Source: Deferribacterales bacterium | Lineage (GTDB): Bacteria; Chrysiogenota; Deferribacteres; Deferribacterales; Geovibrionaceae | Direction of reading: 5' to 3' | Assembly: GCA_050253075.1 (NCBI GenBank) | Contig: JBFWJS010000002.1 | Coordinates: forward strand, 512,001-576,000 | DNA: 64,000 nt | Part shown: positions 2,869-45,923 of the stretch, piece after piece | Numbering within the stretch: position 1 is the first letter of the stretch | Layout of the letters: the number at the start of each line of letters is the position of its first letter | Position numbers and translations under genes: made by a program | The notes under the pieces: generated by a model | Told to the model about the DNA's origin: nothing | The model's database searches: none | What the model saw: the letters and a program-made list of their open reading frames with translations, nothing else

Positions 2869-3230
2869 TAAAAGTTATATTTTCTGCTGTCCTAGAGCAC
2901 ATAACAAAAATAATTTCGCATATTTGATTGTATTTTGTCATTCAGAGGATTTTAGTCCGAAGAATCTTATCCATACATAATCTCTAACAAGTAAATAGGC
3001 TTGCTATAGACACAGCGGTATCAGATTGCCGCACCTCCTTCGGAGGTTCGCAATGACTTATATGTGTTAAGTTTTATGATATATGTCCTACGAGTACGTG
3101 CCTACTCCCGCAAGCGAGGCACATCCTGTGGCTAAAAGTTACATTTTTCTGCTGTCCTAGCAGAAAAATTCGGGTCGCACAGCACGAACGAGTACGTGCC
3201 TACTCCCGCAAGCGAGGCACATCCTGTGCC
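2869..3230 (-). repeat. Tandem ~98-nt GGA-hairpin repeat: full unit 3131-3228, split unit 3090-3130 + 2869-2895
   Basis: 41-bp exact direct repeat 3090-3130/3188-3228; near-identical 27-28 bp repeat 2869-2895/3133-3160. Confidence 0.85.
2937..3057. repeat. GTCA...TGAC palindromic REP-like dimer
   Basis: gtcattcagagga...gaagaatct (2937-2967) facing agattgccgc...cgcaatgac (3023-3057). Confidence 0.7.
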
Positions 3231-4508
3231 TTAATCCTCGTCGCTTCTTATGATTACAGAATTCCTGTGCGCTATGAGCTCCTCGGATTCTGCCAGAACT
3301 CTGATGTCGGGCATGTCAGCCATGAGCTGTTCTTTGCTGTAGTATATGATGCTCGATTTCTTCTGAAAGTCATATGTGCCGAGGGGTGAGAAGAACTTCG
3401 CAGTTCCCCCCGTAGGCAGTACGTGGTTTGGACCTGCGTAATAATCGCCCACAGGCTCGGGTGTATTTGTACCGAGGAAGATAGCTCCTGCGTTGCGTAT
3501 CTTCAGCATGTATTCCATAGGGTTAGCCACACATAGCTCAAGGTGCTCCACGGCTATCTCGTTTGTGATGTCGGCTGCCTCGGCAAGGTCTTCCGTAACG
3601 ATGATAGCGCCGTATTTCTCTATAGATTTCTTCGCTATCTCCTTTTTCGGCAGTTCCTCAAGCTGAGCATAAACAGAGCTTTCGATCTCTTTCGCCAGCT
3701 CCATATCGTCTGTGACTACGATGGCAGATGCGAGCTCGTCGTGCTCTGCCTGAGACAGCATATCCGCAGCTACATAGTCAGGGTCTGCAGTGCTGTCTGC
3801 GACAATGAGTATCTCGCTCGGTCCTGCTATCATGTCTATATCCACCTGACCAAATACCATCTTCTTAGCGAGGGCGACATATATATTCCCCGGGCCGACT
3901 ATCTTGCACACTCTGGGCACTGTCTCCGTGCCGTATGCGAGAGCTGCGACAGCCTGTGCACCGCCTATCTTGAAGCCTCTGTCCACACCGGCGAGGTAAG
4001 CGGCAGCAAGCACAACGGGGTTCACCTCTCCGCCCGTAGCGGGGGTGACCATGACTATCTCGTCCACACCTGCGACCTTCGCAGGAAGAACATTCATCAG
4101 CACGGATGAAGGATAAACAGCCTTTCCGCCGGGAACATATACACCGACAGATTCCAGAGCAGTGACCTTCTGACCGAGGAAAGTGCCCGGAGCTTTTTCA
4201 TACATCCATGTGTTTTCGAGCTGTTTTTCGTGAAAGGAGATAACATTTGCCTTCGCATTTTCCAGAGCTTCTTTCAGCCTGTCGTCGAGGGCATCCCATG
4301 CAGATTTCATCTCTTCCTTTGTGATCTCCATGCCGTTTTTGGCTATGTCGAACTTGTCAAATCTAAGAGAAAGCTCACATAGAGCCTCATCCCCTCTCTT
4401 TTTCACGTCGTTTATGATGTTGAGGACAGTCTGGAGGTATTCCCCCTCCATTATCTCCCCTCTTTTTAATATGTCTTGTAAACGTTTGTCATTCTTATCT
4501 ATTATCAT
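3231..4508 (-). CDS. hisD: Histidinol dehydrogenase
   Basis: [58 protein letters not shown]. Confidence 0.97.
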
Positions 4509-5561
4509 CTATACACCTGTAAAAAATCCTTTCCCGTTCTTCTTGCTGTGGTAGAGCCTGCCGTCTGCTATCTTTACGATGTCTTCCGTGGTGTCGTCCT
4601 TAGTTATATCTCCGGGGACGGAAACAAGCCCCCCTGAGAGGCTCGCCACATCGCCGAAACCATAAGCGTTGAACACCTTTTTACCTATGTCCTGCAGTCT
4701 CTCCACCAGTATGAAGAGGTTCTCTATGTTTGCATGGGGTACGATGAGGAAAAATTCATCCCCGCCGAAGCGCCCTAATATGTCGCTGGTACGCAGACCT
4801 TCCTGTATCTCATCACTGATGGCTCTTATGATGGTGTCGCCAGTGACATGGCCTGCCGTGTCGTTTATCTGCTTAAAGTTGTCTATATCCATAAGGATAA
4901 AAACGAATCCCTGATCATAGCGCTTATACTTCGCCATGAAGTTATCTAGGAACTCACCCATGGCGAGCTTATTATATGTGCCCGTCATGAAGTCTGTTCT
5001 GGTCTGGCGGAAGATCACTTCCGTGTTATACAGCTTCTGCATTGAAACAGATGCGATGGACGCCAGATCCTTTATGAAATCAGTGGCTATATCACCGCCG
5101 AATTTCGACTCGCTCCTGCTATAGAGGTTAAGGCTGCCTATTATCTTTCCGCTCTTTACCAGCGGTGCAAAGAGGTATGAGCCCATATCTTCGTAAACAT
5201 TGAATTCGCTGATTATATTAGTAGCGTTGTCGTCGTTGTATGGTCTCTTTTCCAGATAAAAAGCCTTAAACACGTTTTCAGGCATGAAATATATACGATA
5301 ATCAAGATTGTTACTTTCACGTTCAAAGTCAAGTTCATCAGCATTCAAAAAGAGCACTGCCCTGTCCACTCCGAAGATATCCTCCAGATATCTAAGAGGT
5401 TTTTCGATCATTTCCTTAAGATTTTCAGCGAGGAGGAAGGCGAATTCCACAGTTTTAAAACCTGCGTGCTTTGCCTCGTTATTCTTAACCAGCTCCATAA
5501 GGTTGGTCAGCTCGCCTTTCAGGTCAGAGTTCTCTTTGATCATGTTGTTGACTTTGTTCAT
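4509..5561 (-). CDS. Diguanylate cyclase with N-terminal coiled-coil/GAF-like sensor
   Basis: DIDNFKQINDTAGHVTGD, RTSD I-site, intact RFGGDEF. Confidence 0.9.
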   Translation of the reverse strand: MNKVNNMIKENSDLKGELTNLMELVKNNEAKHAGFKTVEFAFLLAENLKEMIEKPLRYLEDIFGVDRAVLFLNADELDFERESNNLDYRIYFMPENVFKAFYLEKRPYNDDNATNIISEFNVYEDMGSYLFAPLVKSGKIIGSLNLYSRSESKFGGDIATDFIKDLASIASVSMQKLYNTEVIFRQTRTDFMTGTYNKLAMGEFLDNFMAKYKRYDQGFVFILMDIDNFKQINDTAGHVTGDTIIRAISDEIQEGLRTSDILGRFGGDEFFLIVPHANIENLFILVERLQDIGKKVFNAYGFGDVASLSGGLVSVPGDITKDDTTEDIVKIADGRLYHSKKNGKGFFTGV

Positions 5562-7954
5562 TTAAGCTCCCCCAGATTCCTGCCCACAGCACCGTTCACG
5601 ACGAGCGGCACGTCCAGCTCCATCACGTTTTCCATGATGTCCTGCACATGTTTACTGAAAGCATCGACATCTTTGTCGCTCACCTCAAAGACAAGTTCGT
5701 CATGCACCTGCAGAACGATGAGCGCATCATACTTCTTATCGTCCAAAAGCTCCTGACACTCAACCATCGCCAGCTTTATAATGTCTGCTGCCGAGCCCTG
5801 CATAGGCACGTTGGTTGCGATGCGTTCGCCCCTCATTGCCACCGTGCGGTTCTTGCTGCGTATCTCACGTATGAAACGCTTTCTCCCCGCCAGTGTCTCT
5901 GCATAGCCCTTTTCCCTTGTCTCGTTGGCTATCTTTTCGATGAACGACTTCACTTTCGGATATGTCGCAAAGTATTTTTCTATAAATTTCTTGGCACTCT
6001 TCTGGTCTACGCCCGTATCACGGGAAAGCCCGAATGCGGACAGACCGTAAAGTATGCCGAAGTTCACAGCCTTTGCCAGACGGCGCATGTCGCTGTCCAC
6101 GGCATTCGGAGCAACGCCGAATATACCGCAGGCTGTTTTTGTATGTATGTCTTCGTTGTTTCTGTATGCTTCGCCCAGCCTCTCGTCACCTGTGAGGTGT
6201 GCGAGGATGCGCAGTTCTATCTGTGAATAGTCGAAGGATACAAAGCTGTAGCCTTCCTTTGCCACAAAAGCCTCACGGAGCTTTACGCCCCATTCGCCCT
6301 TTATTGGGATGTTCTGCATGTTCGGGTTAACGGAGCTGAGTCGCCCTGTTGCCGTACCCGTCTGGCGGAAGGATGAATGTATACGTCCGTCGCCCGCCAC
6401 GTAGTCTTTCAGAGGGAGAGCATATGTGGAGAGCAGTTTTGCCAGCTCTCTGTATTTCAGAATGGATTCCAGCATGTGTGCAAACAGAGGGTTCAGAGGT
6501 ATCATACCCCTGATGGATTCCTCGTCTGTGCTGAATCCCGTCTTCGTCTTTTTCAGCCCCTCGAGCCCAAGATCCTCAAAGAGGTATACCTGAAGCTGTT
6601 TCGGGGAATTAAGGTTTATGTCGTAGCCTACGGCTGTCTTTATCTCTTCGCTGACCTTCCCTACTTCATCCTGAAGCTTGTCAGCCACCTTCGCCATGAT
6701 GTCGGCGTCGAAGCCTATGCCGTTCGACTCCATCTCGCCCAGACAGTATGCCACAGGGAGCTCCATATCGAGGTAGACGTCCATCAGTCCGTTCTGCTCC
6801 AGCTTCGTCTTTTCACTTTTGGCATTCGCCACCACAGTGCCGATGAACTGATCCATTGTGTCAGTCTTGCCCATTGTGATGCCGCCGCTGTCGGGGTCGT
6901 TCAGCCAGCTCATGAGGAAGACGTCGAAAGCCTTTTCGTACTTCTCGCCTGTGAGCCTGTAAATATTTTTTATATCATAGAAAAACTGTGCATCTTTCAG
7001 GCTGTGCCCGTCACGCTCACAGTATTTCTTTCCGTCTGTCACATATATCTTTCCGTCCACAAACAGCGCAATGGAGACATCCTTAACATCCCCCTGCTCC
7101 ACAGTGGCGACATCCGGCTGAACATCCTCACTGTCGGATTCTGCGAAGAGCTTCGCATGGATAGTCTTCAGTTCGAGGTCTGTGAGCATCTCGCTCAGCT
7201 TCTTTTCATCATCGATGATCTCTACCTGCGGCACTTCGTCCAGTATGTCCAGACCCACAAGGTCATAGCTGAGGTATGCATTGTCTTTATTCTCTATCAG
7301 CTTGTCTTTCAGCTTACCTTTTACCTCATCCACATGTTCGTAGATGCCGTCCAGCGAGCCGTATTCTATCAGCAGTTTTGCAGCAGTTTTTACACCTACC
7401 CCTGCCACACCGGGGATATTATCCGCCGTATCCCCTGCGAGGGCGAGCAGCTCACGAACCTTTTCAGGCCCCACGCCGAACTTCTCCACAACCATGTCTC
7501 TGCCGAGGAATTCACCCTTCTGGCTGTCGAATATCTTCACTCTGTCGTCCACTATCTGAAAGATATCCTTGTCCTTTGTCAGCATGCCGACCTCGTCGTC
7601 GGTATGTGCTGCGAGGGTCGCCATTATGTCGTCCCCTTCGTATCCGTCTATCTTATAGTAGGCTACGCCGAGGAGAGGTATCACCTCGTCCATAATGCCG
7701 AACTGCACTCCGAGATCCTCCGGTGTTGCGTCCCTTGTGGCTTTATATTCAGGGTGTATGTCGTGCCTGCGGTTCTTCCCTTTAGCGTCGAAAACCACGG
7801 CGACATTCTCTTTCCCGTATTTGTTTATCAGTGTGATGATGCTCTGTATAACTCCGTGTATGACGGATGTGGGCACACCCTTAGAGTTTGTGAGCGGAGG
7901 CGATTTGTGATATGTGCGAAAGGCTATGTAGCTTCCGTCTATGATGATCTTCAT
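5558..7954 (-). CDS. polA: DNA polymerase I (5'-3' exonuclease + polymerase; 3'-5' exonuclease region degenerate)
   Basis: IIDG, GDTADNIPGVAGVG, TATGRLSS, DYSQIELRILAH, AKAVNFGILYG, QVHDEL. Confidence 0.96.
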   Translation of the reverse strand: MKIIIDGSYIAFRTYHKSPPLTNSKGVPTSVIHGVIQSIITLINKYGKENVAVVFDAKGKNRRHDIHPEYKATRDATPEDLGVQFGIMDEVIPLLGVAYYKIDGYEGDDIMATLAAHTDDEVGMLTKDKDIFQIVDDRVKIFDSQKGEFLGRDMVVEKFGVGPEKVRELLALAGDTADNIPGVAGVGVKTAAKLLIEYGSLDGIYEHVDEVKGKLKDKLIENKDNAYLSYDLVGLDILDEVPQVEIIDDEKKLSEMLTDLELKTIHAKLFAESDSEDVQPDVATVEQGDVKDVSIALFVDGKIYVTDGKKYCERDGHSLKDAQFFYDIKNIYRLTGEKYEKAFDVFLMSWLNDPDSGGITMGKTDTMDQFIGTVVANAKSEKTKLEQNGLMDVYLDMELPVAYCLGEMESNGIGFDADIMAKVADKLQDEVGKVSEEIKTAVGYDINLNSPKQLQVYLFEDLGLEGLKKTKTGFSTDEESIRGMIPLNPLFAHMLESILKYRELAKLLSTYALPLKDYVAGDGRIHSSFRQTGTATGRLSSVNPNMQNIPIKGEWGVKLREAFVAKEGYSFVSFDYSQIELRILAHLTGDERLGEAYRNNEDIHTKTACGIFGVAPNAVDSDMRRLAKAVNFGILYGLSAFGLSRDTGVDQKSAKKFIEKYFATYPKVKSFIEKIANETREKGYAETLAGRKRFIREIRSKNRTVAMRGERIATNVPMQGSAADIIKLAMVECQELLDDKKYDALIVLQVHDELVFEVSDKDVDAFSKHVQDIMENVMELDVPLVVNGAVGRNLGELK

Positions 7955-7956
7955 TT

Positions 7957-8955
7957 TTATCCTTCGAGCTTTTCGCTTTTCAGCGGCCTGCCCATCAGCG
8001 ATGTAACAGAGTCATAAGGCTTCTTACCGAGGTATAAAATCTCGTAAACCTCGTTGATAATTGGCGCATCCACGCCGAGCTTCTCTGTCAGTTTTTTAGC
8101 AGCCATTGTGGTGTAAACCCCTTCGGCTACCATATTCATGCTTCCTGTTATCTCGTCGAGGGTCATCCCCTCTGCTATCTTTAATCCGACCGTCCTGTTA
8201 CGGGAGAGATCGCCCGTGCATGTCAGCACTAGGTCGCCCATGCCCGACAGCCCCATCAGCGTCTCAGGCTTTCCGCCGAGCGCAACGCCCAGCCTAGCCA
8301 TCTCCGCCAGCCCTCTGGTGATGAGCCCCGCCCTCGCATTATATCCAAAGCCGAGCCCGTCTGCTATCCCCGTGGCGATTGCCAGCACGTTCTTTATCGC
8401 ACCGCCGACCTCCACACCGGGTATATCGTCTGTGTAGTAAGCTCTAAAATAGTCCGTGGACAGCTTCTCCTGCCACCATATGGCGCATTCCTCGCATGAT
8501 GATGCGATGCTCACCGCTGTGGGCTTTTTAGACACGACCTCCTTTGCAAAGGAAGGCCCCGAAAGTATGGAAAACTCTGCATCGTAACAGCTTTTCAGCA
8601 CATGCACGATGAGGTCACCGGTGTCTATCTCTATACCTTTTGTCGCTACCAGCAGCTTCTTCCCTGTGAGAGCGTCTTTATAGTCTGTCGCCACCTTTCT
8701 CGAAAACTGAGTAGGCACGACCCATATTATCCTGTCTGTATCTATGTCGTTAAGCTGGCTGAAGTTTCTAGCAGAAATATTTTCATTCAGCTTTACTCCC
8801 GGCATGAAGAGAGTGTTCTCATGCTGTTCGTTTATAGCTTTCACCAGCTCGTCTTCAAACGCGTAAATATCTACAGCAAAACCGTTTCCCGCTGCCAGCT
8901 CTGCCAGCGCAGTTCCCCAGTTGCCACCGCCTATTACAGCCATTTTTTCTTGCAT
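7957..8955 (-). CDS. gpsA: NAD(P)H-dependent glycerol-3-phosphate dehydrogenase
   Basis: GGGNWGTALA, LSGPSFAKEV, GGAIKNVLAIA, GDLVLTCTGDLSRNR; start uncertain (8943/8955/8967). Confidence 0.95.
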   Translation of the reverse strand: MQEKMAVIGGGNWGTALAELAAGNGFAVDIYAFEDELVKAINEQHENTLFMPGVKLNENISARNFSQLNDIDTDRIIWVVPTQFSRKVATDYKDALTGKKLLVATKGIEIDTGDLIVHVLKSCYDAEFSILSGPSFAKEVVSKKPTAVSIASSCEECAIWWQEKLSTDYFRAYYTDDIPGVEVGGAIKNVLAIATGIADGLGFGYNARAGLITRGLAEMARLGVALGGKPETLMGLSGMGDLVLTCTGDLSRNRTVGLKIAEGMTLDEITGSMNMVAEGVYTTMAAKKLTEKLGVDAPIINEVYEILYLGKKPYDSVTSLMGRPLKSEKLEG

Positions 8956-9014
8956 GAATAACCCCATGATGATATCTTGTACTTAGGATACGCAAAAAAA
9001 TTGTAGGTGATTTT

Positions 9015-9296
9015 ATGCTTCAAATCAATCAATATGACATCGAAATGCTGAAAAACATCAATGAGCAGCGTGCTTGGGAGATTTTCCCGGTGTTTCTGGA
9101 GCATAATCCTGATGTCTGCATATGCAGAAGCTGTGTGCTGGACATCATGGCTATCACCCTCAATACCCTGCCACCATGCTATCACTCCGAAGAGCATAAT
9201 ATGAGCGCAGCCAGAAACAAGGTTTCCGACGAGGAGATCTACCGTAAGATGAAAGAGGCTTCCCTTATAGTTAAAGCTCGTCCACGTCACGATTAG
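9015..9296 (+). CDS. ComFB family protein (Zn-binding, cyclic dinucleotide receptor family)
   Basis: N.NE...C.C..C..D..A..LN.LPP.Y and C-terminal PRH, matching the ComFB signature. Confidence 0.85.
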   Translation: MLQINQYDIEMLKNINEQRAWEIFPVFLEHNPDVCICRSCVLDIMAITLNTLPPCYHSEEHNMSAARNKVSDEEIYRKMKEASLIVKARPRHD

Positions 9297-9521
9297 TCAG
9301 ATTATTTTTCCATCCTTGAAAAAATAATTCGGTCGTTCGACTTGTTAAAAGCAAGTCTCTCTCTCGCTACGCGCACTGCTTCCATGCAGTGGAGTCAGAT
9401 TATTTTTCTCTCCATAGAAAACATTTGATGGTCTCAAATGTTTCTGCACCTAGCTAGCTGCAAAAATAATTCGGTCGTTCGACTTGTTAAAAGCAAGTCT
9501 CGCTCTCGCTCCGCGCGCTGC
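9295..9521 (-). repeat. Two tandem units of the GGA-hairpin repeat (9295-9392; 9393-9521)
   Basis: ~60-bp near-identical repeat 9320-9379/9462-9521; agtcagattatttttc at 9295 and 9393. Confidence 0.85.
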
Positions 9522-9620
9522 ATTATAGAGACACATTACTATATTTGTTTTCAAAATTCCCCCTTCCTTTTTTACACTGACCAGTTTACTATAGTATAAA
9601 TTTATTATTGGAGTGTATTC

Positions 9621-10217
9621 ATGAAAGCTATTGCCATCAACGGAAGCCCCAGAAAAGACGGGAACACATCAATACTGCTTAACAGAGTCCTTGCGCCGCT
9701 CAAAGAAGCGGGATGGGAGACAGAGATCATTCAGCTCGGCGGGAAGCCCGTCAGAGGATGCTTGGCCTGCACAAAGTGCTTTGAAACAAAAGATATGCAG
9801 TGCATCATTAAGAATGACATTATAAATGACGTAATAGCAAAGATGGTCGAAGCTGACGCTGTCATCATCGGTACGCCCACATATTTTGCAAATGTTTCCA
9901 CAGAGATAAAGGCTCTCATAGATAGAGCAGGATACGTCACTATAGCAAACGGTAAACCGCTGAAGGGGAAAGTCGGCGCTCCTGTTGTCGCTGTTCGCCG
10001 TGCAGGTGCCATACCTGCATTCGATGCTATAAACCACTTCATGCACCTTTCACAGATGATAATGCCCGGTTCTACATACTGGAACTTAGGCATCGGACGC
10101 CTACCAGGCGAGGTCGAAGGCGATGAGGAAGGCCACAGAAACATGGAAAACCTCGGTAAGGTCATCGACTGGCTCACTAAGATAACAAAGCCGTCTCTCG
10201 ACTCTTTCCCTGCTTAA
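9621..10217 (+). CDS. Iron-sulfur flavoprotein (Isf / NADPH-dependent FMN reductase-like flavodoxin family), copy 1
   Basis: INGSPRKDGNT, CLACTKC......C 4Fe-4S motif, GTPTYF. Confidence 0.9.
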   Translation: MKAIAINGSPRKDGNTSILLNRVLAPLKEAGWETEIIQLGGKPVRGCLACTKCFETKDMQCIIKNDIINDVIAKMVEADAVIIGTPTYFANVSTEIKALIDRAGYVTIANGKPLKGKVGAPVVAVRRAGAIPAFDAINHFMHLSQMIMPGSTYWNLGIGRLPGEVEGDEEGHRNMENLGKVIDWLTKITKPSLDSFPA

Positions 10218-10221
10218 TCTA

Positions 10222-10414
10222 AATCACTAAAAAAAACACAGCTATGTCATTCTGAGCTGAGCGAAGAATCTGTGATACCATTAGAGAACCAACATGTTCA
10301 GATCCTTCGGCTAAAGCCTCAGGATGAAGAAAAAGTTTTCTGAAACAAAAAATCCCCGATGTTACTATAAACAACGGGGATTTTATTATTGTGGGTCAAA
10401 ATCCCAACATGTCT
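10222..10414 (+). mobile_element. MITE-like ~200-bp element, left end degraded
   Basis: Near-identical by eye to 30913-31103; contains GTCATTCTGAGC...GAAGAATCT / AGATCCTTCGG...CAGGATGA dimer and atccccgatgtt...aacggggat hairpin. Confidence 0.75.
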
Positions 10415-10474
10415 TTAAGGCCCTTGTCACAATGCCCCCTTTTTTATCATATACATCATTCGTTTAAAATTAAC

Positions 10475-10490
10475 TTGAACGATCATTCAA
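10475..10490. promoter_or_regulatory. Palindromic operator candidate TTGAACGATCATTCAA
   Basis: 14/16 dyad symmetry, ~65 bp upstream of the second Isf gene. Confidence 0.45.
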
Positions 10491-10556
10491 AATAACTCTT
10501 GAAAAGTACACCGCTTAGTATACATTAAGTATTACTTTATTATCAGGAGTAGTTAG

Positions 10557-11153
10557 ATGAAAGTAATCGCTATCAATGCAAGCCCCAGAAAGGGAGGAAA
10601 TACCGAGACCCTCATTAACAAAGTTCTCGAACCAATGAAAGATGCAGGCTGGGAAACAGAGGTTATTCAGATCGGCGGTAAGCCCATAAGAGGCTGCATG
10701 GCATGCTATAAGTGTATGGAAAATAAAGACATGCAGTGCGTCATAAAGACAGACATGATAAACGAGATACTGCCTAAACTTGCCGAAGCCGATGCGCTTA
10801 TCCTAGGCACACCTGTCTTTTACTCAAACGTCACATCAGAGATGAAAGCATTCATGGACAGAATAGGCTTCCTATCCCTCGCTAACGGATATCTTTTTAA
10901 AGGCAAGGTCGGAGCACCTGTCATAGCCGTTCGCCGCTCAGGAGCTATCCCCGCTTTCGACGCAGTAAACCACTTCCTGCATCATCAGCAGTTCGTAATG
11001 TCAGGCTCAACATACTGGAATCACGGCATAGGGCTCACACCGGGAGACGTTGAGGGAGATAAGGAAGGCATAGAAAATATGACTCATCTGGGCAAAGCAA
11101 TAGACTGGCTCGCCAGAGCAACAAAACCCGTCAGAGACTCATTCCCCGAGTAG
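10557..11153 (+). CDS. Iron-sulfur flavoprotein (flavodoxin family), copy 2
   Basis: INASPRKGGNT, CMACYKC......C; same length (198 aa) and colinear with copy 1. Confidence 0.9.
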   Translation: MKVIAINASPRKGGNTETLINKVLEPMKDAGWETEVIQIGGKPIRGCMACYKCMENKDMQCVIKTDMINEILPKLAEADALILGTPVFYSNVTSEMKAFMDRIGFLSLANGYLFKGKVGAPVIAVRRSGAIPAFDAVNHFLHHQQFVMSGSTYWNHGIGLTPGDVEGDKEGIENMTHLGKAIDWLARATKPVRDSFPE

Positions 11154-11182
11154 GTTTCATTTTTACATTATCAGGCAGCGGG

Positions 11183-11791
11183 CTACTTGTCTGCTGCCTT
11201 AGCTAAGGCAACTACATGTTTCAGATTCTTTAACAGTCTAAGGCGCTGTTTATACATTTTATAAACCTTATACGGACGCAGACTGTTCTGTATAGCATAT
11301 TTCATAGTCAGCTTTCTCGCACCCAGCCCGTCTATCACGACCAGCTTATACCTGCCCTCTTCAACTTTCTGAAGGAGTACGTTGGATATCACGGCATCCA
11401 CAAACAGTATGTTGTTCTTTTTGAGGTAGTCATTCAGCTCTTCCACAAGGGGAACAGCCTCTTCCCATGTGATCTGCCGTTCTTTCACAGCATGGTGAAG
11501 GGTCAGCACGGGTGATTCGTCATAATTCCTCACCCTGTCAAATACGAGCCCTTCGCCTTCGCTGGTCTCTACCCATCCATAGCACTTCGGCATAAATGAG
11601 AAATCAGTGACAGTATCTTCTGCGAGTTTATAGCTGAGAAATTCTATGAGATTCTGGCTTTTGAAGTTTGGATTTTTGCGTTTTTTAGTGACAACTTTAA
11701 TGACCTTGGTGTCATCATCGGGGTGTATATAACAAATTCTCTGGTGTCCGTGGCCCAGATAATGCTCTTCTTTAAGGTTTATAACGGTCAT
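11183..11791 (-). CDS. YrbL family (PhoP-regulatory-network, kinase-like) protein
   Basis: LG.G..R.CY.HP.D...IKV, G.VET..GEGLVFD, D....N.L, V.IDGLG. Confidence 0.8.
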   Translation of the reverse strand: MTVINLKEEHYLGHGHQRICYIHPDDDTKVIKVVTKKRKNPNFKSQNLIEFLSYKLAEDTVTDFSFMPKCYGWVETSEGEGLVFDRVRNYDESPVLTLHHAVKERQITWEEAVPLVEELNDYLKKNNILFVDAVISNVLLQKVEEGRYKLVVIDGLGARKLTMKYAIQNSLRPYKVYKMYKQRLRLLKNLKHVVALAKAADK

Positions 11792-11879
11792 CTTCTGTCC
11801 TAAAAATAATAGTTTTAATGAAGATGAATTTTAGCATAGAACAAAGAGAGTAAACAAGAGCGCTTTACAAATGATTCAC

Positions 11880-11912
11880 AAAAAAAAGGGAGCCTTTCGG
11901 CTCCCGTTTTTT
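11880..11912. terminator. Intrinsic terminator of the alpha operon
   Basis: gggagcc-tttc-ggctccc stem flanked by A and T tracts. Confidence 0.85.
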
Positions 11913-30899: not shown

Positions 30900-31103
30900 A
30901 TATTTGTTGCAGAATCTCTAAAACAAACACAGCTACGTCATTCTGAGCGTAGCGAAGAATCTGATACCATTAGAGAGCCCACGTGTTCAGATCCTTCGGC
31001 TAAAGCCTCAGGATGACGAAAAATTTTTCTGAAACAAAAAATCCCCGATGTTACTATAAACAACGGGGATTTTATTATTGTGGGTCAAAATTTCAACACA
31101 TCT
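30900..31103 (+). mobile_element. MITE-like ~204-bp element, most complete copy
   Basis: Imperfect terminal inverted repeats ATATTTGTTGCAGA / TTTCAACACATCT; internal CGTCATTCTGAGC...GGATGACG dimer; copies at 10222 and 61583. Confidence 0.75.
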
Positions 31104-31161
31104 TTTAAACGGGTTAGCTCGAAAGCCCCCTTTATATATTAATGATGCAAGTTGTAATTTC

Positions 31162-38200: not shown

Positions 38201-39254
38201 TTACTGAGTCAGATGTAAGTCTGTCGATGAAAAGAACCTTGAATTCTTTGATTCTGTTCTCGTGAAGTCTTTCGATCATCTCTTCGCTCATAGCCGTGTT
38301 TGCTTCGATGACTACTTCACCGTCGGCAGAAACAACATCTTCAGCGAAGAATGTGTGCTCGATGTCCTCAAGAGTAACTGGGATCTTTTCGATCTCGGCT
38401 TTCACCATTCTCTTTCTGGCAGCCTTTGTTATCTTGTGGTTAGCCTTAACGACAACATTTCCTTCTTTATCGAGGATATCAAGGCTGTTGCGGAGGCCGA
38501 GGACTATGTCCTCATTAAAGTTTTTGAAAAGAGTGTCACGATCGCCGAAAGTGACTGTCTCTTTGGTATAGTAAGTATCGAGGATATCCTGCTCTGAATA
38601 ACCGAGAGCTTTAAGCAGAACAGTTACCGGGATCTTACGCTTTTTATCGATCCTTACATACATTATGTTTTTAGAATCGAAGTCGAAATCTATCCATGAA
38701 CCCCTGTAAGGGATTATTCTCGCACTGAAGAGGTGTTTTTCCATTACACCTTTGGATGCAGTGAGGTCTTCGAAGAAGATACCTGGAGAACGGTGGAGCT
38801 GACTTACGATAACTCTTTCAACACCGTTGATTACAAATGTTCCTCTGTCTGTCATCATAGGTATATCGCAGAGATAAACCTCTGATTCCTTGGCAGAGAC
38901 AACCATCTTCTCGCCTGTTTCCTCATTTACGTCGTGTGTTACCAGCCTGACCTTTATCTTTAGCGGCGCAGCAAATGTTGTGCTGCGGTCGATGGCCTCA
39001 CCGGGAGTATACTTATATTTTTCAATACTATAGCTTATATACTCCAATACCGCAGTTTCATTAAAGTCGGTAATTGGGAAAATTTCACGGAACACTTCCT
39101 CCAGTCCTTTAACGGCTCTGTCTTCGATAGACACGCCTGACTGAAGAAAATCAACATAAGAATCTCTTTGAACCTCTATGAGGTCTGGAATATCAATAAC
39201 CTTCTGAATTCTAGAAAAGTTACGTCTCTCGGTGGGTTTGCTGGTCAAATTCAT
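35256..39254 (-). CDS. rpoB: RNA polymerase beta subunit
   Basis: [40 protein letters not shown]; start placed at MNLTSK. Confidence 0.99.
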
Positions 39255-39279
39255 TCGTTTCACCTTCCGGTAATTTTTA

Positions 39280-39309
39280 AACGAAAGACGGGGGAGCGCT
39301 GGCTCCCCC
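39280..39309 (-). terminator. Attenuator-like hairpin between rplL and rpoB
   Basis: gggggagc-cagc-gctccccc followed by gtctttcgttt on the minus strand. Confidence 0.55.
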
Positions 39310-39346
39310 ATACTATTAATGCTTTAATATCAGTAGTTTACTGAAA

Positions 39347-39727
39347 TTACTTAATTGTTACGCTTGCGCCGGCTTCTTCAACTTTAGCTTTGATGTCTTC
39401 AGCTTCAGCTTTAGAGATGCCTTCTTTGATAGGAGCAGGAGCGCCGTCTACAAGAGCTTTTGCTTCTTTAAGTCCGAGACCTGTGATCTCTCTTACAACT
39501 TTGATAACGCCTACTTTTTTGTCGCCTGCAGCAGTAAGTTCAACAGTGAACTCTGTCTGCTCTTCAGCTGCAGCAGTTTCGCCGCCAGCAGCAGGACCAG
39601 CCATCATAGCAACTGGAGCAGCTGGAGATACGCCGAACTTGTCTTCAAGTTCTTTTACGAGCTCAGCAAGCTCGATTACAGTCATATTTTCGATAAATTC
39701 AATTACTTGTTCTTTAGTTACTGACAT
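39347..39727 (-). CDS. rplL: 50S ribosomal protein L7/L12
   Basis: [26 protein letters not shown]. Confidence 0.98.
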
Positions 39728-39741
39728 TTTGTCTCTCCTGA

Positions 39742-40260
39742 TTAGTTATCTTTTTTATCTTTCACAGCGGTCAACACGTTAAGCAGACTTCTTGGTATGT
39801 TCGCAAGAAGAGAAACGAAGTTGGACACAGGAGCGTTCATGCTGCCCAGCATTTTTGCAAGCAGCTCTTCGCGGCTTGGCAGATCTGCCAGAACATTTAC
39901 ATCGTTTGCTGTGAGCGCGTTTCCATCGAGGAAACCCGCTTTGATTTGAAACTTATCAAAGTCTTTAGCGTACTTTTTGATAACTTTAGCGACAGCGGCA
40001 ACGTCGCCAGTTACGATAGCACATGCTGTAGGCTCTACGAGGTATGAATCCATAGAGCTTATTTCGTTGTTATTAAGAGCAATTTTCAATAGCGTGTTCT
40101 TGACTACTTTGAAATCGCTTCCACTTTCTTTGATCTTTGTACGTATAGCAGTCTGCTGTACGTATGTAAGACCTTTGTAGTTTGTCAAAAACAGCGCATC
40201 TGACTCTTTTATTTGAGCGGTTAAGTCCGCTACAAGTTGTTGTTTATCAGCTTTTTTCAC
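39742..40260 (-). CDS. rplJ: 50S ribosomal protein L10
   Basis: [18 protein letters not shown] start with GGAGG RBS. Confidence 0.97.
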
Positions 40261-40269
40261 GCTGTTCCT

Positions 40270-40346
40270 CCGTTTCCGGTTGTATATCAACCGGTTTCCG
40301 CAGGGGTGTTTACACACATCCTAAGATGAGATACCTGCTTCTTTAA
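40270..40346 (-). ncRNA. L10 leader (autogenous regulatory RNA)
   Basis: Minus strand UAAAGAAGCAGG...UAAAC.CCCCUGCGGAA plus ACCGGUUG/CAACCGG hairpin, in the canonical rplA-rplJ position. Confidence 0.65.
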
Positions 40347-40366
40347 CCAGAATTAGTCTCTGTTTA

Positions 40367-41068
40367 TTACAGTTCGTTCACTAGTTTGTGGTGGTCAAGT
40401 TTGACCCTGGGGCCCATTGTTGCAGAAATATACATGCCCCTTACATAATGCCCTTTGGCACTTGCCGGCTTCAGCTTGACTAGTGTGTCAAGCAGCGCTT
40501 TGATGTTTTCCATCAGCTTGCCGTTCTCAAAAGATTTTTTGCCGACTACTGAGTGGATAATACCCATTTTGTCGACTCTGAATTCGATCATACCTGCTTT
40601 AAGCTCTTTAACAACTTTAGCAACATCTGCTGTTACTGTACCGACTTTGGGGTTAGGCATAAGACCGCGTGGTCCGAGCACCTTACCAAGTTTACCCACC
40701 TGAGCCATCATGTCAGGGGTTGCCACAACTTTGTCAAAGTCTGTCCAGCCGCCCTGGACCTTTTCGATAAGTTCGTCATCACCGACGTAATCTGCGCCGG
40801 CTTCCTGTGCGTCTTTCTGTTTCTCGCCTTTACAAAATACAAGAACCTTTACGTCGCGTCCTGTACCGTGGGGAAGACTAACTGAGCCACGAACCATCTG
40901 ATCAGCGTGCTTAGGGTTTACACCAAGCTTAATAGCTATATCGATAGTTTCGTCGAATTTTGCGAATGCGGCTTCCTTAGCGAGAGCGATAGCCTCTTCC
41001 AGGTCGTAAGATCTTTCAGCGTCGATCTTAGCAGAGGCAGCCTGGTACTGTTTTCCTCTTTTAGCCAT
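40367..41068 (-). CDS. rplA: 50S ribosomal protein L1
   Basis: [26 protein letters not shown]. Confidence 0.98.
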
Positions 41069-41078
41069 GATTCACCTC

Positions 41079-41504
41079 TTATAAATCTGTTGTGATGCCC
41101 ATACTGCGGGCTGAGCCTGCAACGATTTTCATCGCCTGCTCTACATCGTTTGTGTTCAGGTCGGGGAGTTTGATCTCCGCGATCTTTTTCAGCTGATCGT
41201 TTGTCAGGTGTCCTGCGACAGCCTTACCGGGTGTCTGAGACGCTGACTGAATGTTCAGCTCCTTCTTGATCAGGTTAGACACGGGTGGAGTCTTAGTGAT
41301 GAAGCTAAAGCTTCTGTCTTCATACACTGTAATGATTACAGGGATGATGTTGTCACCGAGGCTCTGTGTCTCTGCGTTGAAGGCCTTGCAAAAATCCATG
41401 ATGTTGACACCACGCTGACCCAGCGCTGGACCAACAGGAGGAGAAGGGTTTGCCTTTCCTGCCGGAATCTGGAGTTTAAGCTGACCTGTGACTTTCTTGG
41501 CCAT
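41079..41504 (-). CDS. rplK: 50S ribosomal protein L11
   Basis: [23 protein letters not shown]. Confidence 0.98.
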
Positions 41505-41645
41505 TTATAAACCTCCGGTTTGTCTTAAACCTTAGTTTTTTCTATCAGAGCCGCAGCTCTGTAGTTCACATGCGCAAAAGGGCAAACCTGCACTAGCAAG
41601 TTTGCTCCCTTGTATACTTATCGTTCACCCGAAAGGGGTAGAACG

Positions 41646-42170
41646 TTATCCAACTCTTTTAACCTGCAGATAATCAAGCTCTACAGGAGTTTGTCTTCCG
41701 AAGATACTTACGATAACGCGTACCTTCTCTTTTTCAGGGTTAACCTCTTCAACAACACCTGTGAATCCGAGGAAAGGTCCGTCTATAACCTCAACAGTAT
41801 CACCGTCAACATATTTAGAGGCAATACGTGGAGATTCAGACTTGGCAAGGTCTATCATAGCCTTAACATCATGCTCCGGGATCGGAACAGGGTTGATGCC
41901 GCCGACAAAACCTGTAACCTTTGGTATGCTTTTTACGACATGCCAGTTAGTTGTGCTCATTTCCATGTGCACAAGGATATAGCCGGGGAAGGTCTTCTTC
42001 TTACTGACCTTCTTCTTACCCTTTTTAAGCTCTATGACGTCTTCGGTAGGGATGAGAACATCATCTATTTGATCTTCCAGCTTTTCATTCTTCACTTTTT
42101 CCTCAAGGAGCGTAACTACACGCTTCTCGAAGCCGGAATAAGTGTGAACCACATACCACTGTTTTGCCAT
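41646..42170 (-). CDS. nusG: Transcription termination/antitermination factor NusG
   Basis: WYVVHTYSGFE, FPGYILV, IFGRQTPVEL. Confidence 0.98.
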   Translation of the reverse strand: MAKQWYVVHTYSGFEKRVVTLLEEKVKNEKLEDQIDDVLIPTEDVIELKKGKKKVSKKKTFPGYILVHMEMSTTNWHVVKSIPKVTGFVGGINPVPIPEHDVKAMIDLAKSESPRIASKYVDGDTVEVIDGPFLGFTGVVEEVNPEKEKVRVIVSIFGRQTPVELDYLQVKRVG

Positions 42171-42180
42171 GTTTATCTAC

Positions 42181-42360
42181 CTAGTATATAAACTGAGTTA
42201 TCTTTGCGAGTCCGAAGTCAACTATACCCATGAACACAGCGCAGACAACGCATATAGCGATAACAACGCCTGTTGTTCCGATAGTAGATTCCTTAGTAGG
42301 CCATACTACTTTCTTGAGCTCATCTTTAACTTCATTATAAAACGCAGACCATTTGCCCAT
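42181..42360 (-). CDS. secE: Preprotein translocase SecE (not in ORF track)
   Basis: Manual translation MGKWSAFYNEVKDELKKVVWPTKESTIGTTGVVIAICVVCAVFMGIVDFGLAKITQFIY. Confidence 0.95.
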   Translation of the reverse strand: MGKWSAFYNEVKDELKKVVWPTKESTIGTTGVVIAICVVCAVFMGIVDFGLAKITQFIY

Positions 42361-42391
42361 ATTTAAAACTCGTTTTTTTAAAAGGATTTAA

Positions 42392-42467
42392 TGGCAGGCC
42401 AGAGAAGACTCGAACTTCCAACCCCCGGTTTTGGAGACCGGTGCTCTGCCAATTGAGCTACTAGCCT
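42392..42467 (-). tRNA. tRNA-Trp (CCA)
   Basis: Cloverleaf AGGCUAG...; anticodon loop CUCCAAA; GUUCGAG T-arm; encoded CCA. Confidence 0.97.
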
Positions 42468-42489
42468 GCAATCCTTTTGTATTCATTAA

Positions 42490-42515
42490 GCAGCGGCAGT
42501 TTTAGCTGCCGCTGC
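42490..42515. terminator. GC hairpin downstream of rpmG
   Basis: gcagcggcag-ttttag-ctgccgctgc perfect 10-bp stem. Confidence 0.55.
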
Positions 42516-42528
42516 AAACTTAACTAAA

Positions 42529-42678
42529 TTACTTAGTCTCTTTATGAAGAGTGTGCTTTCTGTCAGTACGACAGTATTTCATCAACTCCAGCTTACCAGT
42601 CATAGTTTTCTTATTCTTGGTAGTTGTGTAGTTTCTGTTTTTACACTCAGTACATGCGAGAATAACTTTATCTCTCAT
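42529..42678 (-). CDS. rpmG: 50S ribosomal protein L33 (not in ORF track)
   Basis: Manual translation [49 protein letters not shown]. Confidence 0.96.
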
Positions 42679-42682
42679 TATA

Positions 42683-43867
42683 TTACTCCGATATTTCTGT
42701 TACAACACCGGCGCCGACTGTTCTACCACCCTCACGGATAGCGAAACGAAGACCAGCATCCATTGCGATTGGAGTGATAAGCTCCACGTCACAAGATATG
42801 TTGTCACCAGGCATTACCATCTCTACTCCCTCTGGAAGTGCGATGATTCCTGTTACGTCTGTTGTTCTGAAGTAGAACTGTGGACGGTAACCTGTGAAGA
42901 ATGGGGTATGACGGCCGCCTTCCTCTTTTGTAAGGATGTAAGCTTCTGCCTTAAACTTCTTATGTGGTGTGATAGAACCTGGTTTAGCAAGAACTTGTCC
43001 ACGCTCAACATCGTCTTTCTTAATACCACGAAGAAGGATACCTACGTTGTCACCAGCCTCACCTTGGTCAAGAAGCTTACGGAACATTTCTACTCCGGTT
43101 ACTACTGTCTTAACTGTGTCTTTGATACCAACGATCTCGATCTCTTCACCAACCTTTACTATACCGCGCTCAATACGACCTGTTACTACTGTACCACGGC
43201 CGGAGATAGAGAACACGTCCTCGATTGGCATAATAAATGGTTTATCTATGTCACGCTCTGGCTCTGGGATGTAGTCATCAAGAGCTTGTACAAGCTCGAT
43301 GATCTTCTCTTCCCATGCTGCATCGCCTTCAAGGGCTTTAAGAGCGGAACCCTGGATGATTGGTGTATCATCACCGGGGAATTCGTAAGCAGACAGAAGG
43401 TCGCGGATCTCAAGCTCTACAAGCTCAAGAAGCTCTTCGTCGTCTACCATGTCGCATTTGTTCATGAATACTACGATTGTAGGCACTCCTACCTGACGTG
43501 CAAGAAGGATGTGCTCACGTGTCTGAGGCATTGGGCCGTCAGATGCGCTTACTACAAGTATAGCGCCGTCCATCTGCGCTGCACCTGTGATCATGTTCTT
43601 AACGTAGTCGGCGTGACCTGGACAGTCTACGTGTGCGTAGTGACGAATCTGGGACTCGTACTCTACGTGTGCTGTCGCAATAGTAATACCACGCTCGCGC
43701 TCCTCCGGAGCCTTGTCAATGTTAGCGAAGTCTACAGCCTGGCAGAAACCGCGTTTAGCAAGTACTGCTGTCATTGCTGCTGTAAGAGTTGTTTTACCGT
43801 GGTCAACGTGACCGATTGTACCCACGTTAACGTGAGGTTTCTTTCTCTCAAATTTTTCCTTAGCCAT
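42683..43867 (-). CDS. tuf: Elongation factor Tu (tRNA-operon copy)
   Basis: Protein identical to 26485-27669. Confidence 0.99.
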
Positions 43868-43891
43868 CTTGATCTATCCTCCTCAAGTTAA

Positions 43892-43965
<74 letters not shown>

Positions 43966-44034
43966 AATATAAAAAAAAACAGACGTAACGGTATCGTCCG
44001 TCCTGATTTTTTATAAAAACCACTTAAAAAAAAG

Positions 44035-44108
44035 AGCGGGTAACGGGACTCGAACCCGTGACCCTCAGCTTGGAAGGCTGATGCTCTAGCCAACTGAGCT
44101 ACACCCGC
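44035..44108 (-). tRNA. tRNA-Gly (TCC)
   Basis: GCGGGUG acceptor, loop CUUCCAA, GUUCGAG; CCA not encoded. Confidence 0.96.
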
Positions 44109-44117
44109 TTTAAAAAA

Positions 44118-44200
44118 TGGGGAGAGAAGGATTCGAACCTTCGAAGTCATACGACAACAGGTTTACAGCCTGCCCCCTTTGGCCACTTGGGTATCTCCCC
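44118..44200 (-). tRNA. tRNA-Tyr (GTA)
   Basis: GGGGAGA acceptor, loop CUGUAAA, long variable arm. Confidence 0.96.
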
Positions 44201-44269
44201 TTTACGTGCTCCGGCGTTAACCGGCCAGCCAGTCTAAAAACCCTGTGGGTTCTTAGCTTTAAAAAGAAA

Positions 44270-44342
44270 AGCTGGTGATAGGACTTGAACCTACAACCTA
44301 CTGATTACAAGTCAGTTGCTCTACCGTTTGAGCTACACCAGC
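44270..44342 (-). tRNA. tRNA-Thr (TGT)
   Basis: GCUGGUG acceptor, loop CUUGUAA, GUUCAAG. Confidence 0.96.
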
Positions 44343-44368
44343 CTGTGTCCGCATTGAAGCGGAGGCAA

Positions 44369-44397
44369 ATACTATAATCTAACGTAAAATATGTCAA
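44369..44397 (-). promoter_or_regulatory. Sigma70 promoter of the tRNA-tuf operon
   Basis: TTGACA-17 bp-TAGTAT followed by a GC-rich discriminator-like stretch. Confidence 0.75.
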
Positions 44398-44452
44398 GCA
44401 TTTTGTTAGATTTTTTTTTAAACTTTTTCAAGTTATGTCCGAAGGCTTGCTG

Positions 44453-45589
44453 CTAGCCCATTTTCCTGTAAAAACTGCTTATAACATCACAGACTTCTTC
44501 GATCTCTGCATCAGTTTTATATGCACACATCGGAAGGCTTACTACCTTTTCGGACATCTCTTCGCTGATAGGGAAATCGCCTTTTTTATAGCCGAGGTCG
44601 GCGAAGGCTTCCTGAAGGTGAAGAGGCATAGGATAATGTACGGCACACGGTACCTGATTATCCTGCATATATTTCATCAGTTTGTCTCTTTCCACCGCCT
44701 GAAGGGTAAACTGTGCCCAGACATGCACTGTGTCAGGCATTACATACGGAAGTACTATCTTGCCTGCGTCAGCGAGCGGTTTAAGGAGCTCCATGTATTT
44801 GTTTGCGGTATTATTACGCTTTCTTATCTCAAGGTTTACAAATCTGTCAAACTTAGCATTAAGCACAGCACACTGCATGCTGTCGAGGCGTCCGTTGATG
44901 CCTATTATCTTGTGCTTATATCTTTCATTCTGACCGTGGTTACGCAGCCAGTTGAGTTTTTCGTCCAGCCCGGCATCGCTTGTGAAAACCATACCGCCGT
45001 CGCCGTAGCATCCGAAAGGTTTCGCAGGGAAGAATGATGTAGTACCTATATCGCCGTGTGAGCCTGCCTTCACGCCTTTATACTCTGCGCCGAAAGACTG
45101 TGCAGCATCCTGAACGATGAAAAGGTTATAGTCTTTGATAACTTCACGTATAGCTTCGTAGTCTGCGCACTGACCGTAAAGGTCTACAGGTATGACGCCT
45201 TTTATCTTTTCAAGAGGCACATCTGTTGTCTCGAGGAGTTCTTTCAGCTTCTGAGGACATATATTATATGTCTTAGGGTCGATGTCTACGAAGAGTGGTT
45301 TTGCACCTACAAGGGCGATGCACTCTGCTGTTGCTATGAATGTGAAAGGAGTCGTGATGACATAGTCGCCGTGACCGACCTCATAAGCCATAAGAGCAAG
45401 GACAAGAGCGTCTGTTCCCGAGCTGCATGCCTTTGCGTATGAAGAACCGGTGAAGTCCGTACATTTCTTTTCGAGCTCTGCCACTTCAGGTCCGCCGATA
45501 TACATACCGTGTTCGAGAACCTGTGCTATTGCGTTATCTATCTCAGGTTTAAGTTCCTGATACTGTTGTTTGAGATTACAAAACTGCAT
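44453..45589 (-). CDS. DegT/DnrJ/EryC1/StrS family sugar aminotransferase (WbpE-like)
   Basis: SSGTDAL, VDLYGQ.AD, DAAQSFGA, SFFPAKPFGCYGDGG (PLP Lys). Confidence 0.93.
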   Translation of the reverse strand: MQFCNLKQQYQELKPEIDNAIAQVLEHGMYIGGPEVAELEKKCTDFTGSSYAKACSSGTDALVLALMAYEVGHGDYVITTPFTFIATAECIALVGAKPLFVDIDPKTYNICPQKLKELLETTDVPLEKIKGVIPVDLYGQCADYEAIREVIKDYNLFIVQDAAQSFGAEYKGVKAGSHGDIGTTSFFPAKPFGCYGDGGMVFTSDAGLDEKLNWLRNHGQNERYKHKIIGINGRLDSMQCAVLNAKFDRFVNLEIRKRNNTANKYMELLKPLADAGKIVLPYVMPDTVHVWAQFTLQAVERDKLMKYMQDNQVPCAVHYPMPLHLQEAFADLGYKKGDFPISEEMSEKVVSLPMCAYKTDAEIEEVCDVISSFYRKMG

Positions 45590-45675
45590 TTTCCATTCCT
45601 TCTCTGTTTAATTTAGTTAATGCATAAACGATTTATAGACAGCTTTGCGCTGTAATAGTTCAATCATCACAAAAT

Positions 45676-45736
45676 GTCATCCTGAACGCAGTAAAGGATC
45701 TACTATGAACAGATTCTTCGCTGTGCTCAGAATGAC
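45676..45736. repeat. GTCA...TGAC palindromic REP-like dimer (compact)
   Basis: gtcatcctgaacgcagtaaaggatct...agattcttcgctgtgctcagaatgac. Confidence 0.8.
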
Positions 45737-45759
45737 TGTTTAGGTACACTACTGATTAA

Positions 45760-45923
45760 GCACCTTTGTTAACCGTTGTGCTCCATACCCTTCGACCGAT
45801 TACCAAAGAAAATCCTTAGTCCTAAAGAATTTTCTCCCGCGCTACGCCGAACAAGTACGGCTGCGCTTTCGCTTCGCGGGGTACATCCTGCACCTTTGTT
45901 AACCGTTGTGCTCCATACCCTTC
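45760..45923 (-). repeat. GGA-hairpin repeat unit (45794-45889) flanked by 34-bp direct repeats
   Basis: gcacctttgttaaccgttgtgctccatacccttc at 45760-45793 and 45890-45923; the second copy contains the arsR stop codon. Confidence 0.9.

Follow-up and report, generated by a model that had tools for sequence, protein, structure and literature searches.

What is the hairpin repeat that recurs at gene ends in a 64,000-nt stretch of a Deferribacterales genome (Geovibrionaceae; assembly GCA_050253075.1, contig JBFWJS010000002.1, forward strand), and how does it reach its sites? The stretch, hereafter the window, is G000:C2:512001-576000, where G000 denotes the source genome, a 3.04 Mb draft in 17 contigs that is 99.9% complete. 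A first reading of the letters alone (the sequence-only reading) had described three minus-strand copies of a four-hairpin unit whose GGA loops resemble sites for the regulator CsrA. Some of the proteins of G000 fall in 90% clusters with members named Denitrovibrio, and the genome is accordingly a Denitrovibrio-like one. We find that the repeat family is real, is mobile, and matches no Rfam family. On balance, we favor the explanation that it is a non-coding, four-hairpin mobile repeat at gene boundaries, often lying between two alleles of the last codons of a gene and likely carried from one lineage to another through host recombination, in the manner of a homing-like cassette, with loops that are predicted to bind CsrA when co-transcribed. 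The sequence-only reading was sound on much of the structure, but missed the main feature, which is that gene ends beside the element are duplicated and synonymously re-spelled.

Each unit is non-coding, about 100-150 nt long, and laid out as H1, a middle domain, H3, H4 and a tail. H1 is a 6 bp stem with an A(N)GGAY loop, H3 carries an ACTTGT- or CTTT-type loop, and H4 has about 11 AT-rich bp beneath a second A(N)GGAY loop, followed by a tail of 10-15 nt. The middle domain (H2), first taken for a constant mini-hairpin, comes in two forms: a mini-loop of the GNA or CTTG type, or a longer stem, and the long copies open into GNA/GNA internal loops and an extra stem. The H2/H3 domain stands between H1 and H4, which are neighbors only across the junctions of arrays; the arrays run head-to-tail and often open with a 5′-truncated unit. 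The ends of the unit do not pair in folds.

An iterative nhmmer search of G000 gave 44 matches, of which 37 were almost full-length with E<0.01. When 10 copies were used to build a covariance model of H3-H4 (R1), it gave 41 matches at E<=0.1 in the same genome, with 4 further divergent copies spotted by eye, so the proposed genome scan did uncover a family, which lies between genes at roughly 40 sites. Relatives were positive too: in a phylum comparison set of 68 genomes, with 67 candidates scored per genome and counts that are therefore lower bounds, R1 was positive in at least 32, comprising 14 of the 15 others in the host family, 16 of 21 in family f7, 1 of 7 in family f5, and none in six other families, besides G000 itself.

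The upstream flank of the element is found again after it in 31 of 129 arrays, compared with 1 of 126 control windows; the loci are interrelated. The 31 scored duplications were sorted by judgement into 23 true flank copies, 17-92 bp long, and 8 that were dropped as other repeats, and 22 of the 23 begin 7-17 nt after H4. A second set of arrays, found with an H1 motif query, contained true flank copies in 6 of 17, starting 9-12 nt after H4. There are thus 29 arrays in all with a flank copy of 17-93 bp, mostly of a gene 3′ end, joined ~12 nt after H4. We refer to the working gene end as X, and to its copy beyond the element as X′.

X and X′ were compared codon by codon. The first set gave 33 synonymous and 14 non-synonymous differences among 304 codons, and the second 17 and 10 among 116, for a combined 50 and 24 in 420 codons (25 loci with sense gene ends, some orthologous, and including one locus without differences that is a false duplication). 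If X′ merely decayed while X evolved silently, 39-45% of the differences should be synonymous, and the data reject this model with nominal P values of 1e-4 to 7e-7; after orthologous repeats are dropped, 47 of 70 differences are synonymous (P<=2e-4). The fate of the stop can be read only from alignments that extend that far, and those at eight loci fall short; in 16 of 16 that do extend to it, X′ is closed at the same codon as X, and in 6 of them the stop codon itself differs. Past the stop, the two sequences differ immediately. At locus L285, two gene ends differing at 15 of 31 codons are each closed by a stop. X and X′ are best read as two working alleles of the gene end, since their differences are mostly synonymous, stops are kept and often swapped, and contigs of the same species show a matching pattern at arsR (below). 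An origin of the junction at stalled ribosomes (in-frame NNG) was checked by eye and was unsupported.

The copies in the window, and the gene ends that they meet, are as follows (window positions).

2216..2290, minus strand: degenerate fourth copy (H3-H4-tail), weak (nhmmer E 0.17), overlapping the stop of a plus-strand gene at 1824-2228
2869..2895, minus strand: stranded 3′ half of H4 with tail, with repeats of another family between it and the array
3083..3133, minus strand: second tandem unit, truncated, running from H1 to the H3 loop and then jumping to the H4 loop TAGGACA
3134..3231, minus strand: full unit 1, with H1 (3215-3231, AGGAT loop), CTTG mini-loop, H3 (3182-3199), H4 (3143-3169, AGGAC loop) and tail; period 98
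9015..9296, plus strand: comFB (PF10719), whose stop abuts the tail of unit 2, antisense
9297..9391, minus strand: full unit 2, with H1 (ATGGAA), GTA triloop, H3 and H4 (AAGGAT), ending 4 nt from the opposite-strand comFB stop
9393..9421, minus strand: remnant H4 and tail of the preceding unit
9459..9521, minus strand: incomplete unit made up of H2-H3 and the 5′ arm of H4
45752..45759, minus strand: tail-like remnant TTAATCAG after X′, a collapsed second unit
45760..45793, minus strand: X′, the second arsR-end copy, beginning 14 nt past H4 and identical to X in G000
45794..45895, minus strand: full unit 3, with H1 (AGGAT), GAA triloop, H3, H4 (45807-45835, AGGAC) and tail GTAATCGGTC
45890..45923, minus strand: X, the working arsR 3′ end, comprising the final 8 codons and the stop codon at 45899-45901, together with the 5′ arm of H1

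All the stems and loops first quoted for the three loci are present, at slightly shifted coordinates; the third unit is real as well, but the limit of 45889 given for it removes the 5′ arm of H1. The sequence-only reading also placed each locus at a gene stop. This is so for hisD (identified by TIGR00069) and arsR, which end directly before units 1 and 3, with H1 of unit 1 starting at the last A of the hisD stop codon. The comFB stop also meets its unit, but comFB lies on the plus strand with unit 2 antisense to it, and locus 2 is therefore not a 3′ untranslated region on the GGA strand. In unit 3 of G000, one H4 pair is G-T and the outer pair of H1 is broken (window 45803, 45814, 45879); the copy looks decayed because these pairs are Watson-Crick in X3 and X5, two of the same-species contigs described next.

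All 15 family relatives examined (15 of 15) lack the element at hisD. At arsR, G000 and G002 each have a filled site, but the variants and their junctions are not the same in the two; the site is empty in the other 10 of the 11 genomes compared with G000, and in 3 metagenome contigs. Contigs of the same species (from four of 23 listed runs, 95-99% alike) are polymorphic at arsR: X12 and X13 are empty, X3 is filled, and X5 has both states. In the filled alleles of X3 and X5 the upstream gene end equals that of the empty allele, and it is X′ that has GGC and GAG for GGT and GAA, two synonymous changes. Mobility, which had been offered as one option, is thus borne out by filled and empty arsR sites within one species, by the empty hisD sites of relatives, and by flanks duplicated at a fixed junction. 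The empty arsR allele keeps a few H1-like and tail-like letters, and may for this reason be an excision product. Other inserts were seen at the hisD site, which is occupied in G003 (L034) by a different hairpin-rich insert and in G012 (L038) by a tandem array of a GTCA-type repeat.

These observations suggest a cassette model in four steps. The 3′ tail would have been joined once, rarely, to a site 17-93 nt upstream at short microhomology, perhaps through a single-strand cutting or end-trimming activity. X′ would from then on be the right-hand homology arm, making integration into an empty allele possible: donor DNA (gene body, X, element and X′), or a popped-out circle of X and element, would integrate there, leaving the gene whole and displacing the recipient's own end downstream. 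Recombination between X and X′ would then yield both tandem arrays and empty alleles. Finally, CsrA may bind the loops in transcripts, as a side effect or as a retained benefit. DNA uptake is a possible entry route, judging from the presence of comEC.

Several points weigh against this explanation. Most arrays have no detectable flank copy (98 of 129 fall below threshold), and the route by which the element reaches new loci is left unexplained by the model. The enzyme that would make the fixed junction was sought among partner genes and none was found. The tail consensus, near TAATCRG, is loose: of 22 tails inspected at loci with duplications, 9 have the strict motif. Because the loci are related, the P values are overstated, and some gene calls, which came from a purpose-written open reading frame (ORF) caller, are wrong. 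The strain data cannot separate integration from excision, since each reverses the other, and comEC (32 of 32 repeat-positive genomes) does not discriminate, because it is near-universal in the phylum (65 of 68). Synonymous differences would also arise by allelic exchange within X after an ordinary long target duplication; exchange within X would not, however, give different post-stop spacers.

This last possibility is part of an alternative in which the repeat is a passenger of the repetitive extragenic palindrome (REP) or miniature inverted-repeat transposable element (MITE) type, mobilized in trans by a transposase or nickase that works on single-stranded DNA, with a variable and long target duplication (like that of YPAL) and later allelic exchange in the working copy. 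We consider it unlikely. The 3′ junction is fixed, as a passenger would have it, and stop codons are abutted in either orientation (at H1 in 39 of the 100 arrays having H1, where a sense stop lies within 25 nt, and at the tail in 26 of 131). The duplication at L020 takes an antisense gene start and those at L143 and L168 take a divergent promoter region, captures that point to a DNA-level event. The GNA triloops, GNA/GNA internal loops and CTTG loops fit as well, since CTTG mini-loops suit single-stranded DNA. For the GNA type, GCGNAGC hairpins are described as far more stable in DNA than related RNA hairpins (PMC13037366). Against a passenger stand the frequent differences between X and X′ in stop codon and post-stop spacer, the lack of a terminal inverted repeat, and the outcome of the search for a mobiliser.

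The single-strand-acting mobiliser that had been suggested was sought and not found. Genes for Y1, IS110 or RVT_1 proteins were not found in G000, 99.9% complete as it is. Y1 genes occur in 13 of 32 repeat-positive genomes, and among 28 Y1 loci only 1 has a copy in its vicinity, at a distance of about 1.3 kb. Across the 68 genomes, neither Y1, reverse transcriptase (RT), GIY-YIG, comEC nor csrA tracks the repeat, and clustering of 508 flanking ORFs gave no recurring neighbor beyond orthologous housekeeping genes. At 16 loci with small GIY-YIG genes, no R1 match was better than E 0.058, and GTCA-type repeats, a different family, flank these genes instead. A strict, narrow DNA pattern gave 7 matches in genome_contigs, the 2 examined being in apparent coding DNA of genomes without an R1 match, and 0 matches in viral_contigs, a result too narrow in scope to establish that the repeat is absent elsewhere.

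The same searches bear on a retrozyme-like origin, in which a transcript fragment (gene end and element) would be circularized, reverse-transcribed and integrated. The captured flanks are mostly sense 3′ gene ends, arrays often begin with a 5′-truncated unit, and the 3′ end is fixed just behind a strong hairpin, all as this idea would have it. RVT_1 genes are nevertheless present in only 5 of 32 positive genomes, and not in G000, the capture at L020 is antisense, and no ribozyme family was matched, and we regard such an origin as highly improbable.

The second repeat family, of the GTCATTCTGAG / GTCATTGCGAGG type, has 284 motif matches in G000 and flanks small stand-alone GIY-YIG genes in many phylum genomes. 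Its sites include window 3023-3057, 10246, 30937, 31017, 45676-45736 and 61612-61692, as well as G000:C1:248346 and C2:446108, and 11 of 35 element loci have it within 350 nt, compared with 113 of 832 other spacers (P 0.01). CGTC-type repeats are said to have no dedicated transposase, and GIY is not mentioned in the passages of that source drawn on here (PMC3733652). Elsewhere in the window, an intergenic block of ~190 bp is duplicated at 90-94% identity (10222-10416 and 30913-31105), and four long ORFs have no Pfam match at E<=1e-5 (48960-51050, plus strand; 54062-55318, 56814-59255 and 61764-63977, minus strand), some of them adjoining a secretin gene (55315-56835). From its ORF layout, we take the window to include an rpoBC and ribosomal-protein region.

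Whether the repeat acts as RNA was considered from its structure. Single units fold into the four hairpins originally drawn, with folding z scores for units 1, 2 and 3 of -3.3, -2.5 and -1.5 as RNA and -5.0, -4.2 and -2.5 as DNA; the strand is not fixed by folding alone, because the plus strand folds about equally well. The covariation claimed for the stems is strong: in a plain MAFFT alignment of 10 copies, not fitted to the model, 18 of 18 pairs changed on both sides and 0 of 500 shuffles reached the score, and in a model-fitted set of 80 distinct copies from relatives 95.8% of cells pair. Since palindromic DNA can also covary, via arm correction, this demonstrates structure and not RNA action. 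Non-Watson-Crick pairs on the GGA strand are predominantly G-U, as had been noted for the window, with 43 G-T against 17 A-C in a family-wide tally. GGA loops are common rather than invariant: 131 of 165 H4 loops and 108 of 124 H1 loops contain GGA, as counted by a loop picker that favors A at two positions, and the commonest form is the 5-nt AGGAY. The loops without GGA (34 of 165 in H4, 16 of 124 in H1) are mostly AYGAN, so that no base of the loop is less conserved than the first G of GGA. The mini-loops suit single-stranded DNA while the G-U excess and a sense bias (below) suit RNA, and the data do not separate the two.

The resemblance to CsrA sites is borne out. Both csrA and fliW, looked up as had been suggested, are present in G000 and are adjacent, and the leaders of 3 of 3 flagellin-type genes carry C-A(A)GGAY-G hairpins of the same form as H1 (GCGC-AAGGAT-GCGC, GAGC-AGGAT-GCTC, and GGC-AAGGAC-GCC or GC-AAGGAT-GC). 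Because the loops match these leader hairpins and csrA-fliW is present, it is plausible that A(N)GGAY loops in transcripts would bind CsrA. The variant loops do not exclude this, as some CsrA homologues tolerate GGA-to-GAA (PMC13443453). Within G000, 50 of 62 non-coding ANGGAN hairpins with at least 5 bp fall in mapped elements, and several of the other 12 are further copies; in a genome-wide tally of GGA loop cores, other hairpins predominated. The opening codons of csrA (G000:C4:201396, minus strand) contain a 5-bp hairpin with an ACGGAA loop, a possible autoregulation site. H1-only derivatives stand directly before a Shine-Dalgarno sequence and start at L282, L277, L278, L279 and L266 and resemble domesticated CsrA operators; the genes downstream are, from their sequence, probably fliQ-, trpB- and fliM-like.

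The GGA strand was placed relative to its neighboring genes in 131 arrays. Of the 73 arrays between co-directional genes, 57 are sense and 16 antisense; the remainder comprise 35 in convergent and 12 in divergent contexts, and 11 without an assigned context. These counts include orthologous sites and some erroneous gene calls. Within G000, genes on the leading and on the lagging strand both show the sense bias (10 of 12 and 9 of 14). A replication-strand rule was rejected, since the GGA strand was the leading one at 21 of 35 loci (P 0.31), and gene direction explains more. Besides convergent stops, the tail meets a Shine-Dalgarno sequence and start in 20 arrays, in which H4, standing directly upstream, is placed as in a CsrA operator; in 9 arrays it meets the 5′ end of a tRNA or tmRNA. 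These nine (L003, L008, L022, L028, L030, L079, L085, L128 and L147) end 10-21 nt before the mature 5′ end and would therefore be in precursor leaders. Further arrays lie in rRNA promoter or spacer regions (L075, L085). Some sites, including a tRNA-Glu/Val spacer, tRNA-Sec and a hemL-like gene, are common to several genomes or genera.

These features raise the possibility of a distributed CsrA sponge or operator set, maintained by the host at the RNA level and mobile only secondarily. The match to flagellin-leader hairpins, and to the CANGGANG hexaloop described for CsrA targets (PMC4894983), favors it, as do the 57:16 sense bias on genes of both replication strands, the 43:17 excess of G-T over A-C, the shared sites, and the report that mRNA can titrate CsrA in FliW-type species (PMC4894983). 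Yet presence varies within one species, 16 of 73 copies are antisense, AYGAY stands in about one-sixth of loops, and the H1 and H4 loops lie at least ~67 nt apart in sequence compared with an optimal spacing of 18 nt (PMC4894983). Nor does csrA track the repeat, being present in 60 of 68 genomes, including 28 of 36 without the repeat. The CsrA-site resemblance behind the original sponge proposal therefore stands, and the dedicated sponge RNA is unsupported; we consider host maintenance as the primary cause distinctly improbable.

Returning to the homing-like cassette, we tentatively entertain a broader possibility, that the repeat is a gene-less bacterial homing element: some 100 nt of folded nucleic acid that would fix their own 3′ junction, make a second arm from the gene end, and pass from strain to strain and from species to species at many housekeeping genes while leaving these intact, delivering CsrA operators that could recruit downstream genes to the CsrA regulon or titrate CsrA in a FliW-type bacterium. 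If so, the C-termini of housekeeping genes would be exchanged between lineages. Allelic gene-end copies offer a concrete route of spread needing no element-encoded protein, with arsR as a polymorphic locus. If CsrA does bind, a global regulator is tied to mobile DNA through the repeat, and this in a bacterium with csrA-fliW, for which control by dedicated sponge RNAs is not the known mode; if it does not, this is still an uncatalogued repeat with an unusual footprint.

How does the family compare with known systems? A match to a described family would have removed its novelty, and none appeared: at gathering score, Rfam matches in the window were 5 tRNAs only, and at E<=10 there was nothing on copies in window 2700-10600 or in 13 array loci. 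A literature search, in which closed journals and supplements were not covered, found no paper that describes the family, or any bacterial non-coding repeat that duplicates gene ends as alleles. The closest described kind is TwoAYGGAY (RF01731), with two A(Y)GGAY hairpins, multicopy and intergenic, a proposed Csr/Rsm sponge whose mobility is given as unresolved (PMC2864571, PMC4333381, bioRxiv 10.64898/2026.09.22.753630). It shares the two A(Y)GGAY-loop hairpins, tandem-GA loops, strain-variable copies, mobile-like spread and REP-type neighbors, and for such GGA-loop repeats copy-number variation is unexplained, with no known mobiliser. Its hairpins, however, are sequential on a common basal stem and occur in divergent doublets, whereas here they lie at opposite ends of a linear unit in head-to-tail arrays, and gene-end duplication is absent from its description in the cited passages. 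The RF01731 covariance model gave 0 matches at E<=10 in G000, and whole-Rfam scans gave none. TD-1/TD-2 (RF03162) and Bacillaceae-1 (RF01690) are likewise genome-specific multicopy motifs with modular stems (PMC1950547), and the reverse strand of Bacillaceae-1 carries CsrA-like loops (PMC4333381). TD-2 gave 0 matches at E<=10 with 150 of 275 candidates scored, the best Bacillaceae-1 match to a copy scored 16.8 bits against a cut-off of 35, and TD-1, covered by the whole-Rfam scans only, had no match.

CsrB/CsrC, RsmY/Z and the C. jejuni flaA leader share GGA-loop hairpins and a CsrA-bearing host (PMC4894983). Whereas a sponge of the CsrB/RsmZ kind comes from one conserved stand-alone gene, at a fixed locus and equipped with a promoter and terminator, the repeat has 2 hairpin sites per unit and is dispersed, polymorphic and partly antisense. 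GTAG/CGTC REPs with RAYT are also extragenic palindromes in arrays (PMC3733652); here neither a GTAG nor a CGTC tag is conserved, and the repeat does not flank a Y1 gene. Filled and empty sites are shared with MITEs that have terminal inverted repeats (Correia, ERIC, RUP), but here the ends are unpaired and the duplications are 17-93 bp and variable, not a fixed TA. For variable duplications the closest system is YPAL / RU-2 of Yersinia, which is non-coding, structured, without TA ends, present at filled and empty sites, and co-transcribed with upstream genes (PMC2229807). Its duplications are 3-26 bp and it forms one long palindrome (PMC2229807), compared with four hairpins with GGA loops and allelic copies of 17-93 bp here. 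The arrangement of the gene ends has its counterpart in WHO at yeast FBA1, where the donor 3′ end sits on the working gene, followed by the element and by the stranded old 3′ end as downstream homology arm, and where repeated homing builds tandem clusters reminiscent of the arrays described here (PMC7282813). WHO is eukaryotic, kilobases long, confined to a single gene, and encodes an allele-specific endonuclease (PMC7282813), whereas the repeat described here is about 100-150 nt, encodes nothing, and is found at many unrelated genes.

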